Origin: an uncultured bacterium
Lineage (GTDB): Bacteria > Fidelibacterota > Marinisomatia > Marinisomatales > UBA1611
Direction: 5' to 3'
DNA: 64,000 nucleotides
NCBI GenBank assembly: GCA_943788175.1
Contig: CALSPG010000006.1
Span: 64,001-128,000 of the forward strand
Position 1 is the stretch's first letter, and the number at the start of each line of letters is the position of its first letter. The notes under the pieces are model-generated. The model was given only the letters and a program-made list of their open reading frames with translations, was not told the DNA's origin and did no database searches. Made by a program: the position numbers and the translations under genes. This document shows positions 5,278 to 15,635 of the stretch, in pieces.

Positions 5278-6117
5278 ATGATTAAAAAAGTTTACCTATT
5301 TTCCTTTGCGATGTTTTTTTCTTGCGATGTTGGTGATTACCAGGATTGTAATAGCGTAATAAATGGAGGAGCTTACTTTGATGAATGCGGTAATTGTGTT
5401 GGTGGAAGGACAGGATTGACAGAGTGTACTACCGATTGCAATGGAACTCTTGGGGGAACTTCTTTTTTAAACCCTTGTAATATTTGCGTTGAGGGTAACA
5501 CGGGTATAAGTTTAGACTCTTGCACGAGCTTAAGCTATAATGGTGAAACATATAGAACAATTATTATTGGAAATCAAGTTTGGTTAGGTGAAGATCTTAG
5601 AACTAAAAATTTTAATGATAACTTACCTATTCCAGATTTTGATATATCAGAAGCTGATTCGATAGGCACAAAATTAGTGATTCCTAATTCAGCAATACAA
5701 ACTGACCAAGTATTTTACAGTCCACTTGCTGCATTAAACAACATGATAGCTCCAGATGGATGGAGAGTCCCAACAAAATCAGATCTAGAAAACTTATTAG
5801 AGCAACTGGGTGGAAATTCTATAGCTAGCGGTAAATTAAAAGAAACTGGATATAAAAGTTGGAACTTTCCCAACCAATTTGCTACTAATGAATCAGGCTT
5901 TTCTGCAAAAGGAACTGGCTACAGTAGTTCACTAGGAACTTTGAAAAATGTTGGAGAACGGTATTCATTTTGGAGCATAAATACTTTTGATGAAGGTGAT
6001 ACAACAAATACACTATATTGGACTCTTAGGCTTAGCTTTAACAGCAATTATGCTATTCTTGCACCTGATAGTGCAAATATAGGTCACCCCATCAGGCTAA
6101 TAAAAAATAATAAATGA
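5278..6117 (+). CDS. Lipoprotein with Cys-rich repeats and FISUMP (Fibrobacter succinogenes major paralogous) domain
   Basis: Lipobox-like FFSC; two DCNxxxxGxxxxxxCxxCVxGxTG repeats; YRTIIIGNQVWLGEDL, PDGWRVPT, NESGFSA, GHPIRLIK. Confidence 0.85.
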   Translation: MIKKVYLFSFAMFFSCDVGDYQDCNSVINGGAYFDECGNCVGGRTGLTECTTDCNGTLGGTSFLNPCNICVEGNTGISLDSCTSLSYNGETYRTIIIGNQVWLGEDLRTKNFNDNLPIPDFDISEADSIGTKLVIPNSAIQTDQVFYSPLAALNNMIAPDGWRVPTKSDLENLLEQLGGNSIASGKLKETGYKSWNFPNQFATNESGFSAKGTGYSSSLGTLKNVGERYSFWSINTFDEGDTTNTLYWTLRLSFNSNYAILAPDSANIGHPIRLIKNNK

Positions 6118-7022
6118 GTCCTGCAAAATCTTCCATAATAGCATCTATGCTATCAATCTTTATTTCATGTAATAGTGGAATAAACAATGATGAAAACGAA
6201 ATAATAAGTGAAAATTCTTATTTAAGTATATCGAATACTAATAATCAAAGCGAGGTTTCAGGGTTAGAGAACATTTATATAAATGTTAAAAACTTTACAA
6301 ATATATGGAAAATCTATTTAGTAATAACGAATAATCAATCTATTGCATTTGAAGATAGAATTTTATTAGATACTACAAGCTCATCTGATAGTATAATTTA
6401 TAAGACTATTTGGGATACTAATTTATTTCCAAATGGTAATTATGATCTTTTTGCAGAAATAATTGACAGCACTAATCAGAGAATAATCTCGACAAAAAGT
6501 TTTACCATAATAAACTATAATACCTTAAAAATTATTAATAATCATGAGGTTTCAATTAATTATCTAATTAACTCGAATAGTGGGATGCTTTTTTCAAATT
6601 CTATAACGCACCTTCAGATAGAAAAAATATTTGATGAGACCAATCTAAAATGTGATATTCAAGAACTTCCTTGTGGAACAACATTCTCATATAATTTCTT
6701 CGTTAAACCTGAAAGTATCGATCAACCAATAATAATTGAACCGGATAGCAACTCATTTTTCCTCAGAATACAAAATAAATTATTAGTAGAAAACTCTATA
6801 AATTCTGTTTTAATTCAGGCAAATGAAAATATAGAAGAGTGCAACAATTTATCTATTCAAAATGATAATCAAGTTTATTCATTAGGCTACTTTAATTTAG
6901 ATAATGATTTGTACCAGCAAGGGAAAGTAGAAATATTAACTAGATATGGTAATAATACAGACACTACGAAGTTGACATTTTTTAATAAATCAATATTAAT
7001 TGATACATTAATTATTAATTAG
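6114..7022 (+). CDS. Hypothetical lipoprotein, possible Ig-like domain
   Basis: IFISC lipobox-like; WDTNLFPNGNYDLFAEIID resembles bacterial Ig-like folds; ATGA-type overlap region with upstream gene; very AT-rich. Confidence 0.65.
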   Translation: MSPAKSSIIASMLSIFISCNSGINNDENEIISENSYLSISNTNNQSEVSGLENIYINVKNFTNIWKIYLVITNNQSIAFEDRILLDTTSSSDSIIYKTIWDTNLFPNGNYDLFAEIIDSTNQRIISTKSFTIINYNTLKIINNHEVSINYLINSNSGMLFSNSITHLQIEKIFDETNLKCDIQELPCGTTFSYNFFVKPESIDQPIIIEPDSNSFFLRIQNKLLVENSINSVLIQANENIEECNNLSIQNDNQVYSLGYFNLDNDLYQQGKVEILTRYGNNTDTTKLTFFNKSILIDTLIIN

Positions 7023-7051: not shown

Positions 7052-8536
7052 CTACTTCAGCAATAATGCTTTTTTGGTATCAATAATTGAAGGAGTCTCT
7101 ATTTTTATAAAATACATTCCTGATGGAAATTTAGAAGCATTCCAGTTAATATTATGGAACCCAGCTGCAGTGTAAACATTATTAACCAGAATAGAAATCT
7201 GCTCACCCAACATATTATATACCACAACTGATAAGTTTGTTTCTGTTGGCAGAGAATAAGATATTGTTAATGTAGGATTAAATGGGTTTGGATAAAGACT
7301 TTTAATATTTGGAGTGTTTGGCAGAGATAATAATTCTCGTTCAGAAAATTCTTTTTCTACATTTGCTTTAATATGAAATCCTTTTTTTGATGCTATTACA
7401 ACATCATGAACATTTAAAATATGCTGACTAGGAATATTTAAATCAATTTTTTTAACTAAACTAGTTCCAGATAAATCATAGGCATAAAAATTATAATTAT
7501 TATTTTTAGAACTGTAAGTCATCGACCATCCATCTGGAAGAATTAATTGATCTAAATATCGATCAATCTTAGTAAAAGAGGATAAACTAAACTGGAATCC
7601 TCCAATTTCTGAAGTTGATTCAATGCTTATATAATTATTTTCGTTTTCTTGAGAAAAAAACAGGGTTCCTTCGTCTTCTTCATTGTTTAGAAAAGAAGGC
7701 ATATTATCAAACAACACCATATTAACTAGATTAACAACATCAATAATATTAACATTATTATCACCATTTATGTTTCCAGCCTGCTCTCTACATTCTGAAA
7801 TGGGTAATAACTCTGAATCATTTAGTTGAAAATGATCAAGTAATGCAACGACATCAAAAAAATTGATAATAGGCAAATTATTTTCGTCTAGGTCACCATT
7901 TACGTTTCCCGTGCTAAAGACATTAACATTATCGCAAATATCACAAGCATCCCCACTACCATCTTCATCTATGTCAGCTTGTAGGGGGTTAAAATTCTCG
8001 GGACAATTATCTTCATCAGTATCGATACCATCCTCATCAAGATCAGATGGCAAATCTTCTAACGCTTGATTAATTGTAGCTATTATTGCAGCTTGATTAT
8101 ATCCGGTATCTGAGTAGAGAACTTCACCATCGCCACCTATAACAACATTATGGGGTATGTATCCAACACCAAAAAGACCATAAATATTATTTACGTCATC
8201 AACAATAGGATGAGAAAGACCAAAAGTTGTTCCCCAACCGGTACAACTGTATGGCTGGTTCCAATCTTGACCAAACCCTACTAAGACTAATGAATCATTT
8301 GTATATTGTTGAAATACTGCTTCTGCCTGCGGAGCCTCCGTAGTACAAGATGGTCACCAAGAGGTAAAAAGATTAATCCATACAACCCTATCTCTACCAT
8401 TTTCCTCGTAAGACCACGTACCGTCACCATTATGACAGATATCTCCGGAAAAATCGTTCACATAATCGCCTACTGTATATGTCTGACCAAAAGCACTGAC
8501 GAAAAACAGTGAGTATATAATGAGAATAATTTTCAT
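7052..8536 (-). CDS. Predicted 494-aa secreted selenoprotein: UxxC thioredoxin-like domain + TSP3-like repeat + dockerin-like module + T9SS-type C-terminal sorting domain
   Basis: Track ORFs 8354..8536 and 7052..8053 share a frame (offset 483 nt) and the 300 nt between them are stop-free. Only interruption is TGA at 8354-8356 in INLFTSW-U-PSCTTEAP. Then YIPHNVVIGGDG, DLDEDGIDTDEDNCPENFNPLQADIDEDGSGDACD, GNINGDNNVNIIDVVNLVN, YPNPFNP...SGMYFIKI...KKALLLK. Confidence 0.85.
8322..8350 (-). promoter_or_regulatory. Putative bacterial SECIS element
   Basis: mRNA 3' of UGA: CCAUCUUGUACUA-CGGA-GGC-UCCG-CAGGCAGA; hand-folded hairpin with G-starting apical loop beginning 17 nt after UGA. Confidence 0.6.
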
Positions 8537-12564: not shown

Positions 12565-14235
12565 TTAACGATTTATCTTTGCCCAGGAATCACGAAGCGA
12601 AACGGCACGATTGAAAATTAAATTTTCTTTTTTTGAATCTTTACTGTCTAAAACAAAATACCCAGTTCTTTCAAACTGATAAATGCAATTACTATCAGCA
12701 GAAGCTAAGGAAATTTCAAGTTTTGCATTTTTAATAGTTTTTAGACTTTCAACATTTAAATTTTTTACAAAGTCGCCTCCGGCTTCTGGGTTTTCATCAT
12801 TGAATAATCTATCATATAGTCGAATATCTGCCTCAATAAATTCACTTGCGCTAACCCAATGTAAGGTTCCTCTAACTTTTCTGCCATCCTCAGACATTCC
12901 ACCTTTTGTTTCCGGGTCATACGTACAATGTAATTCTACAACATTTCCATCGCTATCTTTTACCACATCATTACAAGTAATATAGTATGCAAATTTCAAC
13001 CTCACTTCCCTACCAAAACTGAGTCTAAAAAACTTTTTAGGAGGTTCTTCCATAAAATCATTTCTATCAATAAATATTTCTTTTGAAAATGCGATTTTTC
13101 GTTTACCTGCGCTTTCGTCTTCAGGATTATTTTTTGCATCTATATATTCAAGTTTATCATCAGGGTAATTCGTGATAATAATTTTTATAGGATCTAATAC
13201 TCCCATTACTCGCGGTGCTTTCTTATTAAGGTCCTCCCGAAGAGCATTTTCTAATTTAGCAACGTCGACAATTGCATCTCTTTTTGTTACTCCAATTTTA
13301 TCAGAAAAGTTTCTGATTGATTCTGGTGTATATCCTCTTCTTCTTAAACCCGAAACTGTAGGCATTCTAGGATCACTCCAGCCATCTACATGCCCCTCAT
13401 CAACAAGCCTCTTTAATTTACGTTTACTCATTATTGTAAAATTTAAGTTCAACCTCGCAAATTCAATTTGTTGAGGATGATAAACACTTAAACGATCTAA
13501 ATACCAATCATAAAGAGGACGATGATCTTCGAATTCTAAAGTGCAAACAGAATGCGTTATCTTCTCAATTGAATCCTCTAATCCATGTGCCCAGTCATAC
13601 ATAGGATATATACTCCAATTATTACCAGTCCTATGATGACTAGAATGCAGTATACGGTACATAATTGGGTCTCTCATATTCAAGTTTGAATGACGCATAT
13701 CTATCTTCGCACGAAGTGTTTTTTCACCATCTGCGAATTCACCTGCTTTCATTTTTAGGAATAATTCTATATTTTCTTTAATAGATCTCTCCCGGAAAGG
13801 ACTTTCTGAACCGGGCTTAGTTAAAGTGCCTCTCAGGTTTCTAACCTCTTCGAAGCTAAGGTCACATACAAATGCATTGCCCTGTTCAATTAGAATCAAT
13901 GCATAATTATACATTTTTTCAAAATAGTCTGAAGCAAACAACGGTTCTTTTTCCCATTGAAAACCTAGCCATTTGACATCTTCGATGATTGAATTTACAT
14001 ATTCAGAATCTTCTTTTAATGGGTTTGTATCATCGAATCGAAGGTTGCATTTACCCTGATATTTTGTTGCAAGACCAAAGTTCAGACAAATTGATTTAGC
14101 ATGCCCTATATGCAAATAGCCATTGGGTTCAGGAGGAAACCTGGTATGCACCCTATTTCCCCATTTACCAGAAGCATTGTCATCATCAATAATTTTTGTA
14201 ATAAAATTCTCTTGAATAAGTTTATCTTGGGTCAT
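12565..14235 (-). CDS. glnS: Glutamine--tRNA ligase
   Basis: [43 protein letters not shown]. Confidence 0.97.
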
Positions 14236-15635
14236 AATTGTTTAAACTCCAAAATATTTTCTAATCTTTTGCTGCATACTTCTTTTCCTAAAATTTCCAT
14301 AAAGTCTGGCATTGAAGGGCCAACCAGTTCACCTGCAAGTGCCAGCCTTAAAGGTTGCATCAGCCTCCCCATGCCAATCGATAACTCTTCAACGCATTGA
14401 CGAATTAAGTCATCAATTGTTTTAACATTCCATTCATCAAGTTTTTTTAATTTTGAAAGAAATTGATCTAAGATACCACTGGTATCCTCCTTCCAACATT
14501 TTTTTAATGCATTTTCATCAAAACCTGTTGGGTCTTTAAAAAAATAAGAATGGTCTTTGACGTCTGATAATGTTTTTAATCTATCTTTTATTAATTCAAT
14601 AACCTTAACTAAAAAGTCATTGTTGCGATTATAAGAAGACCAAGATGAATCAAAATCATTTATTAGCTCTAAAAGCTCTGAAGACTTTTTGGCCAGAATT
14701 TTCTGAGAACTTACCCAATCAAGTTTTGTCATATCAAATACTGCAGATTTTTTATTTACGTTTTGAATTGAAAAATTATTTATCAAATAGTTAATATCAA
14801 AAATTTCATCATTGTTACCAGGATTCCATCCTAATAGAGCTAGATAATTAATTAATGATTCAGGTAAATAGCCCATATTTTTAAATGTTTGAGTTCCTAC
14901 TGCACCATGCCGTTTGCTTAAACGTTTACCATCAGAACCAAGAATCATTGGCAAATGTCCAAATAACGGTAAATCCCATCCTAGTGCATTATAAATTAAT
15001 ATTTGTTTGGGTGTGTTCGAGATATGATCCTCACCTCTAATTACATGACTAATATTCATATCATTGTCGTCTACGACTACCGTTAAATTATATGTTGGAC
15101 TCCCATCTGACCTGGCTATAATAAAATCATCTAATTCAGATATCTTAGTTGTAATAGTTCCATATACCTCATCTTTGAAGCTAACTACACCGTCTTCTGG
15201 AACACGAAGTCTAAGAGTAAATGGTACATTATCTTTGAGCTTCTTATCAATATCCTCCTTTTTTCTATCTCTCCAAATGCCAGGGTAAAGAAATATTTTA
15301 TCATTATCTCTTAATGCTTGCAGCTCGTCATTAGTAGCAAAGCACCTATATACTTTACCACTTTTTAGGAGGGATTCGATAACCTCATTGTATCTTTTTC
15401 CTCTCGATGATTGAGCAATTGGCTCTTCATCATAGTCTAATCCAAGCCATTTTAATGATTCTAATATTTGTGCAGTATATTCTGCTTTGGATCTTTCCTT
15501 ATCGGTGTCTTCAATTCGGACTAAAAATTTGCCGTCATGTCGTTTAGCAAATAAATAGTTAAAAAGAGCGGTGCGAACTCCACCAATGTGAAGCTTTCCG
15601 GTCGGACTTGGCGCAAACCTAACGACAGGGTTCAT
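14232..15635 (-). CDS. gltX: Glutamate--tRNA ligase
   Basis: [35 protein letters not shown] overlap with glnS. Confidence 0.97.

Follow-up and report, generated by a model that had tools for sequence, protein, structure and literature searches.

The window analysed here is a 64,000-nucleotide (nt) stretch of an uncultured marine Marinisomatales bacterium of the Fidelibacterota (Marinimicrobia/SAR406; contig CALSPG010000006.1, positions 64,001 to 128,000), and the gene under study is a putative gene for a secreted selenocysteine (Sec, U) protein on its reverse strand (positions 7052 to 8536). Under genetic code table 11, the locus holds two open reading frames (ORFs) in one frame, of 60 amino acids (aa; 8354..8536, reverse strand) and 333 aa (7052..8053, reverse strand). 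A preliminary description had joined them across an in-frame TGA into one 494-aa protein with a W-U-P-S-C site, and translation of 7052-8536 (reverse strand) with TGA as U reproduces this protein: it has 494 residues, and U61 is the sole departure from table 11. The letters at the codon 61 site are tgg TGA cca tct tgt, and the residues around it are ...VVWINLFTSW-U-PSC-TTEAPQAEAVFQQY... (also given as ...INLFTSW-U-PSC-TTEAPQAE...). Two Pfam domains run across the TGA, AhpC-TSA (PF00578; residues 22 to 141, 31.3 bits against a cut-off of 26) and Redoxin (PF08534; residues 22 to 148, 28.9 bits against 26.6). The protein begins with a hydrophobic leader and ends in a sorting domain of the type IX secretion system (T9SS).

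Conservation of the TGA was followed in 40 related genomes, the gene itself not being counted. All 12 full-length relatives (37 to 94% identity) have exactly one internal TGA each, at the same W-U-x-x-C place in the loci inspected; a private nonsense allele among relatives with only Cys, which the preliminary description had named as a possible outcome, is not the pattern found. In 21 full-length orthologues, G23, C34, N36, and W60 are invariant before the TGA and C64, E67, A68, P69, P128, H129, and N130 after it. As invariant residues flank codon 61 on both sides, the two halves are selected as one protein. A nonsense mutation or assembly error, leaving a pseudogene or two separate genes, would agree with the split of the frame under table 11 and with the NCBI entry, which is only a shortened product (409 aa, with part of the N terminus missing, named [quoted passage not shown]). 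This explanation is extremely improbable given that no full-length relative, even at 37% identity, has lost the TGA or either half, that the TGA is also present in contigs from independent studies, and that the Pfam domain crosses it.

The stretch is held by 20 of the 24 public runs listed, from 13 studies; six are RNA libraries, and one run is marked as a possible source. A 10.7-kb DNA contig from another study spans the gene with two differences, and two RNA libraries, a type of library that can hold DNA, contribute contigs (576 and 421 nt) that include the TGA. Among the 40 difference rows listed out of 65 (contigs from four public runs), none is a variant at 8354-8356; TGT or TGC there, a further outcome considered beforehand, was not seen.

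An order-wide search found the redoxin domain at an E value of ≤1e-10 in 89 of 201 genomes and 33 of 54 genera. By hand count, the 140 match rows comprise 84 with TGA (one of them with two), 55 with none, and 1 with TAG. Every one of the 35 distinct Sec forms reads W-U-x-x-C, and 20 rows hand-picked from the 55 without TGA have W-C-x-x-C or a serine form (S-S-R-x-C or S-S-H-V-S) at the aligned place. Pairing of Sec and Cys at one column is typical of selenoprotein families. On a quick tree, six changes between Sec, Cys, and other labels are needed, and its well-supported branches force only one. In the window's own genome, no paralogue of the Sec redoxin domain was found at an E value of <1e-10, and none of the stalk was found.

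Several variants stand beside this pattern. Serine-type derivatives (L080, L082 to L086, L089, and L090), some of 560 to 586 aa, have S-S-R-x-C or S-S-H-V-S in place of W-U-x-x-C; they group together with good support in the quick tree and may be redox-dead or monothiol versions. In homologue L069 (G165:C8), a pair of neighboring TGA codons makes the active site W-U-U-P-C. One relative has several paralogues of 280 to 320 aa arrayed in approximately 13 kb (G010:C1:258854-271916); these combine a redoxin with TGA and TSP3/dockerin, some having TAA or no internal stop.

The genome (2.27 Mb, 92% complete) encodes the full Sec machinery for which the preliminary description had proposed a search. 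In genome profile searches, selD (396 bits), selA (467 bits), and an adjacent selB (316 bits) all scored above their cut-offs, and a tRNA-Sec (57.3 bits, likewise above its cut-off), called tRNA-SeC with anticodon TCA by ARAGORN, lies on the window's own contig. The selD match (G000:C7:396580-397506) itself holds one in-frame TGA, and the SelD of this genome is probably also a selenoprotein.

Reading of TGA as Trp, through genetic code 4, a suppressor, or other read-through, would give W-W-P-S-C, and entries of 492 to 498 aa in ENA, JGI, and Logan do show W at residue 61. Such decoding is very improbable. TGA terminates 10 of the 38 ORFs of at least 200 aa in the window, where read-through would add only 0 to 41 codons; code 4 was rejected because TGA otherwise serves as a stop in the window. 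Homologues have Cys at this position, the genome has the full Sec machinery, and a W-W-x-x-C redoxin would be without its attacking residue. The truncated NCBI product and the Trp-bearing ENA and JGI entries bear out the expectation that gene callers would mishandle the gene.

The candidate Sec insertion sequence (SECIS) is a hairpin a short distance 3' of the Sec codon. Its 11-nt core, CGGAGGCUCCG (8330-8340, reverse strand), starts 13 nt after the UGA (+17 to +27, with the U of UGA as 1) and is exact in 33 of the 35 distinct Sec forms; the other two carry UGGAGGCUCCA, in which the outer C-G pair is replaced by a compensated U-A, and fall in different clades of the quick tree. None of nine Cys forms has the core. 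The hairpin overlaps the codons of a conserved (T/S/A)-E-A-P motif, and Cys forms often keep the E-A-P residues in other spellings (GAG GCT CCC, GAG GCC CCT, GAA GCA CCT, etc.). Four codons have their third positions within the core (x-C-G GAG GCU CCG), and these positions are invariant in a lineage that is AT-rich. In a 31-sequence alignment, the helix (columns 13 to 20 with 24 to 31) has 77.4% of its cells paired, compared with 67.5 ± 1.7% in shuffled alignments, and a covariation score of 0.241, compared with 0.084; none of 500 shuffles reaches either observed value, and slid controls stay at ≤0.084. Flanking pair 16-28 occurs as UA (13), GC (7), AU (2), and GU (1), with 8 unpaired, and pair 15-29 as AU (14), UA (6), GU (4), and GC (1). 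The RNAalifold consensus is a 6-bp stem with a GGC loop.

Several results weigh against the hairpin. The number of pairs changed on both sides is 4, compared with 3.9 in shuffles (397 of 500 as high), and that of further pair types is 8, compared with 7.8 (302 of 500 as high). This copy has an A-C mismatch, and its 21-nt hairpin is weak (−4.7 kcal/mol; z, −0.56; equaled by 57 of 200 shuffles). Conservation of the core is partly forced by the conserved E-x-P protein motif. An Rfam scan of 8150-8450 gave no relevant family, only three chance-level matches (E values of 0.33 to 6.9). Shuffled sequences fold as well as the 71 nt that follow the UGA (z, +1.43), and the case for a SECIS is for that reason a comparative one only, in which the hairpin is small but specific to Sec forms and placed where a bacterial SECIS should sit. 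Bacterial SECIS elements have a guanosine in the apical loop, according to a figure legend in PMC2398784, and the available text of PMC12013277 indicates that a share of real bacterial elements departs from the standard model.

Two side observations concern the same region. Summed contig depth roughly doubles to triples only at 8322-8387, which includes the TGA and the hairpin, in metagenome and metatranscriptome contigs; the short contigs there continue into unlike sequence and are read as relatives that would share just this conserved piece. In addition, the Omp28-type selenoprotein genes described below (L031, L032, L033, and L035) have another mini-hairpin at a similar distance after the UGA, UGCGA-GUU-UCGCA or CGCAA-GUU-UUGCG, with stem changes that look compensatory by eye.

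Taken as a whole, 7052-8536 (reverse strand) is very probably a genuine selenoprotein gene. Its features and those of its neighbors are listed in Table 1.

Table 1. Features of the Sec redoxin gene and of the adjacent cassette genes
Feature	Residues or size	Coordinates	Strand	Basis
Whole Sec redoxin gene	494 codons + stop (7052-7054)	7052..8536	-	TGA at 8354-8356 read as Sec
Predicted Sec-pathway signal peptide, MKIILIIYSLFFVSAFG	1-17	8486..8536	-	Read from sequence
ResA/TlpA-like redoxin domain, site W60-U61-P-S-C64	22-148	8093..8473	-	Pfam, Foldseek
Sec codon (TGA)	61	8354..8356	-	TGA conserved in relatives; Cys or Ser in homologues at aligned place
Candidate SECIS hairpin, CUACGGA-GGC-UCCGCAG		8327..8343	-	Comparison of Sec and Cys forms, RNAalifold
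TSP3-like calcium-binding repeats	~162-204	7925..8053	-	Pfam/NCBIfam, conserved columns
Dockerin-like module	~205-283	7688..7924	-	Two GN(V/I)NGD...D(V/I)V segments, three helices
Cohesin-like beta-sandwich	~284-400	7337..7687	-	Predicted fold
T9SS type A C-terminal sorting domain	414-494	7055..7297	-	Pfam, NCBIfam
DUF6029 protein, upstream neighbor	661 aa	8649..10634	-	Pfam DUF6029, E 2e-28
TlpA/ResA-like redoxin, W-C-K-P-C site, leader peptide	171 aa	10674..11189	-	Pfam Redoxin, E 1e-21
Exported protein, first cassette gene	436 aa	11193..12503	-	No known family

The protein was modeled with AlphaFold from a 21-row alignment, and structural matches were sought with Foldseek. The upstream 60-aa piece had been credited with the leader that the downstream piece lacks, and in agreement with this all 21 aligned orthologues have a hydrophobic N terminus, which is modeled as a helix at residues 2 to 15. 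The AhpC-TSA/Redoxin match is likewise present in all 21 orthologues. A thioredoxin fold is modeled at approximately residues 22 to 161, with ResA, DsbE-like, and other thiol-disulfide oxidoreductases as Foldseek matches (TM(target) of 0.71 to 0.82), and the invariant P128 is likely the cis-Pro. The UxxC thioredoxin-fold site with Sec that had been put forward from the sequence is thus upheld by the Pfam matches across the TGA, by the TGA of the relatives, and by ResA-type fold matches.

The remainder of the protein is a stalk of less certain modules. Residues 162 to 204, read as thrombospondin type 3 (TSP3) calcium repeats, are acidic and poorly modeled but have invariant D/N/C columns, including C178 and C198-x-x-C201. 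Pfam TSP_3 matches there below its cut-off (E value of 0.0023 on the fragment), 13 of 21 orthologues match at an E value of ≤0.01, and NCBIfam throspo3_MtsC matches at 2.8e-8. The next module, with modeled helices at 226 to 237, 245 to 254, and 264 to 276, is called dockerin-like only because its Dockerin_1 (PF00404) score lies under the gathering cut-off (13.3 bits against 22.9; E value of 0.098); one of 21 orthologues matches at an E value of ≤0.01, and PF00404 is precomputed on several shorter public homologues. The TSP3 part of the scaffold proposed in the preliminary description therefore stands, and the dockerin part is weak in this copy. Strands modeled at 288 to 396 (pLDDT of 80 to 90) resemble a cohesin+FN3 structure (2w1n; E value of 1.4e-8), an archaeal cohesin (2xdh; TM(target) of 0.51), and scaffoldins (4fl4 and 3kcp).

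The overall model is of moderate confidence (pLDDT of 73; pTM of 0.45), and the Dockerin_1 score is low. The cohesin assignment is one of fold, as no Pfam family, including Cohesin (PF00963), matches that part in this protein or its orthologues. Co-folding of the dockerin-like with the cohesin-like piece scored 0.53, and the best of three controls scored 0.00. In calibration, 58 of 80 solved complexes passed the mark, as did 2 of 110 mismatched pairs; at scores of ≤0.60, the passes comprised only 7 of those 80 complexes and both of the mismatches. Runs agree in at least 92% of contacts, with a partner pLDDT of at least 51. The models lend weak support to a contact between the two modules, and the pass may be a product of memory, since cohesin-dockerin complexes are solved.

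The C-terminal tail had been assigned to the T9SS from its motif, and this assignment holds: Por_Secre_tail (PF18962) scores 45 bits (cut-off of 27) and TIGR04183 scores 43.3 bits (cut-off of 23), with the tail above cut-off in 21 of 21 orthologues. The genome encodes SprA (586.9 bits; cut-off of 200) and the PorU sortase (583.6 bits; cut-off of 420), which, together with the tail, makes the T9SS route plausible. A PorV-like match falls below its cut-off (131 bits against 250), a point against this route. At approximately 50 other places in the genome, the match is confined to the C-terminal tail of the PorU model; these resemble sorting tails that belong to other proteins. The SprA match (G000:C7:328244-334275) is in pieces, one of which (328662-329009) holds an internal TGA, for which a further Sec codon, a frameshift, or division of the gene in two could account.

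TlpA/ResA relatives work in the periplasm, and T9SS cargo can be released rather than anchored in Bacteroidota. Given this, the subthreshold PorV match, and the weak dockerin and cohesin calls, the selenoprotein could stay periplasmic or be released into the water, the tail and modules giving no surface display. This outcome is distinctly unlikely, as the sorting tail is above cut-off in every orthologue examined and SprA and PorU are both present. Conserved extra cysteines (C34, C98, C178, C198, C201, and C249) would also fit an extracytoplasmic protein.

Most likely, then, the gene encodes a ResA-like selenol-thiol oxidoreductase that is sorted by the T9SS and carried on a calcium/dockerin/cohesin stalk, with its function and location inferred. 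SelB with Sec-tRNA would read the hairpin as a SECIS and insert Sec at U61, so that the ResA/TlpA-like thioredoxin fold would have W-U-P-S-C as its active site. The leader at the N terminus would direct passage through the Sec translocon, and the type A sorting domain would mediate hand-over to the T9SS, placing the enzyme on or outside the outer membrane. There it would be held on a calcium-stiffened TSP3 stalk, whose dockerin-like and cohesin-like modules may bind it to other proteins of the surface or to itself. U61 would attack substrate disulfides or oxidants and form a selenenylsulfide with C64, and the protein would act as a surface thiol-disulfide oxidoreductase.

To our knowledge, no reductant is known outside the outer membrane, which counts against this proposal as regards the direction of catalysis and the substrate. 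The same consideration would favor a genuine selenoenzyme that is mainly a surface peroxidase or oxidant scavenger, or a metal/thiol-binding module, rather than a disulfide reductase or isomerase. The best Pfam match, AhpC-TSA, is a family that also holds peroxiredoxins, and the marine “Prx-like” UxxC selenoproteins are filed beside peroxiredoxins in the available text of PMC2398784. Such a role is unlikely, though less so than the other alternatives considered here: the site is W-U-x-x-C-x-x-E-x-P, the fold matches are to ResA, DsbE, and TlpA-type oxidoreductases and not to peroxiredoxins, the best NCBIfam matches are ResA, StoA, and DsbE, and a further TlpA-like redoxin, with an ordinary CxxC site, is encoded in the operon. 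The thiol-disulfide oxidoreductase remains the preferred assignment.

Three genes upstream of the selenoprotein gene form a conserved cassette with it. The order GlnRS, 436-aa protein, CxxC redoxin, DUF6029 protein, and head protein is kept in 8 of 10 wider loci (L103 to L108, L111, and L112), the remaining two being paralogue copies without the cassette; among the eight, Cys forms occur in G026 and G084. A DUF6029 match lies in the short upstream flank at 26 of 39 distinct places, with the orientation checked by eye for five. The last slot of the cassette holds a redoxin-type selenoprotein in some genera and an Omp28-type (NF045500) selenoprotein in others (G009 and G034, both among the eight). 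In G016 and G019 (L031:139-1335 and L032:152-1354), an Omp28-type gene lies immediately 5' of the redoxin-type gene on the same strand; these Omp28-type proteins have a U-P-Y-C site and approximately 400 aa and are without the cohesin-like part or the T9SS tail.

The DUF6029 model (nine-row alignment; pLDDT of 63) is all beta with long strands, and the protein ends in Phe. It only loosely resembles 22-strand outer membrane barrels (TM of 0.3 to 0.38), and the protein is taken to be a large beta-barrel in the outer membrane; identification as a TonB-dependent transporter was not accepted at this degree of resemblance. HHpred similarity of DUF6029 to the Wzi barrel is noted in the available text of PMC9603273. 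The 171-aa redoxin matches the NCBIfam ResA subfamily with an E value of 1e-24, below its cut-off. The 436-aa exported protein has no match in Pfam or NCBIfam, and the named clusters from an atlas search (CsgG/LpoB/TolB_N-like) score only 0.80 to 0.83 and are leads, not evidence. A DsbD-type membrane protein is encoded elsewhere in the genome.

Beyond the cassette, adjacent class I Glu/Gln-tRNA synthetase-type genes of 556 and 467 aa (12565-14235 and 14232-15635, reverse strand) overlap by 4 bases, and the first of them is the conserved left border of the cassette. On the other side lie a Fib_succ_major-domain protein (5278-6117, forward strand; E value of 1.4e-21) and, next to it, a 302-aa protein without family assignment (6114-7022, forward strand). 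This pair is convergent with the selenoprotein gene and is conserved only within the genus.

The cassette partners (CxxC redoxin, DUF6029 barrel, and 436-aa protein) probably share an envelope process with the selenoprotein. A more specific and rather speculative proposal, which we consider improbable as it stands, is a four-gene envelope module with an exchangeable Sec head that conveys redox chemistry of thiols and selenols through the outer membrane to the cell surface. The selenoprotein, sorted by the T9SS and borne on the calcium/dockerin/cohesin stalk, would work in it with the DUF6029 barrel of the outer membrane, the TlpA-like CxxC redoxin of the periplasm, and the exported protein, here taken as CsgG/LpoB-like. 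If true, this would be the first extracellular selenoenzyme system in bacteria, and the redoxin-type and Omp28-type Sec heads would be alternative tools for one slot.

A widespread gene of an abundant ocean lineage appears in databases either truncated or with Trp at its catalytic residue, and the analysis points to T9SS-mediated exit of Sec enzymes from the cell. The gene also suggests that a very small hairpin signal can lie inside the codons of a protein motif, where bSECISearch-type thresholds may miss such signals. The conserved pairing of the gene with a DUF6029 barrel and a second redoxin and the exchange of two different Sec heads on one stalk provide a testable handle on DUF6029 and on surface redox chemistry.

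NCBI taxonomy equates Candidatus Neomarinimicrobiota with Fidelibacterota, in the FCB group. With type A T9SS cargo of that group, the protein shares an N-terminal leader and a C-terminal Por_Secre_tail. Cohesin-dockerin modules are similar in having two calcium-loop/helix segments and then a cohesin-like sandwich, but here both are in one chain attached to a redox enzyme, and Pfam matches are weak or absent. In the literature searched, no paper was found to treat T9SS cargo with Sec (one paper that mentions both selenocysteine and type IX secretion being left aside), selenoproteins of the Omp28 type, or a Sec protein that carries a dockerin. Nor did any paper found describe the full architecture, the small hairpin signal, or the conserved cassette with either head type in its last slot. 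The view that no protein of this architecture was characterized holds for the architecture as a whole; the parts are less novel, with the UxxC Prx/Trx-like class present in the available text of PMC2398784 and the stalk in NF045500. Because enzyme class and stalk are already on record, the interest of the gene is rated below that of the preliminary description.

ResA, TlpA, and DsbE (CcmG) share with the protein their fold, a W-x-x-x-C-x-x-E-x-P layout, a proline in the cis-Pro place, and a leader. They differ in that here Sec replaces the attacking Cys, approximately 330 extra residues of stalk and a T9SS tail are present, and exit from the periplasm is predicted. The likeness is at fold level only, with the ResA model (NF002854) at 35 bits (cut-off of 170) and DsbE (TIGR00385) at 22.1 (cut-off of 123.15). 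NCBIfam has no model for this redoxin type, its best matches being ResA at 35 bits and WAxxUGC_long at 16 bits. NF041054, “ResA-like WAxxUGC motif-containing protein,” is likewise a curated ResA-like selenoprotein but a different family (16 bits against a cut-off of 300), its motif being U-G-C and not U-x-x-C.

The stalk has a closer counterpart in NF045500, “Omp28-related selenoprotein,” which is alike in lineage, leader, UxxC-type site (U-P-Y-C), and TSP3 plus dockerin-like stalk. Its positions 257 to 376 align with residues 148 to 275 here, the stalk only (E value of 3.6e-30). The Sec head of NF045500 is Omp28-like, whereas the head here is a redoxin, and the present protein (105.6 bits; cut-off of 200) is not a member. 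Two U-P-Y-C proteins used as positive controls (L033 and L031; 518 and 534 bits) are true members, so a selenoprotein on this stalk was already curated.

The nearest published relatives are marine. The available text of PMC5029168 lists a family named “Prx-like thiol:disulfide oxidoreductase” as well as single-cell genomes of SAR406. An ocean metagenome survey based on short reads (Zhang & Gladyshev, PLoS Genet 2008, PMC2398784) reports, in the sections available, Prx-like 1 (pfam00578, UxxC; 225 sequences), Prx-like 3 (pfam08534, UxxC; 68 sequences, enriched in marine samples), and Trx-like families. These Prx-like and Trx-like UxxC selenoproteins resemble the present one in weak pfam00578/pfam08534 similarity, the UxxC site, Cys homologues, and marine habitat. 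The paper names no calcium repeats, dockerin-like or cohesin-like modules, T9SS tail, or gene neighborhood, and thrombospondin, signal peptide, outer membrane, and periplasm are not mentioned in it. Its text describes Prx-like 3 fused to an “Unknown_3” domain with three conserved Cys, including a CxxC, which fit C178 and C198-x-x-C201, and the fusion described here is probably its “Prx-like 3 + Unknown_3.”

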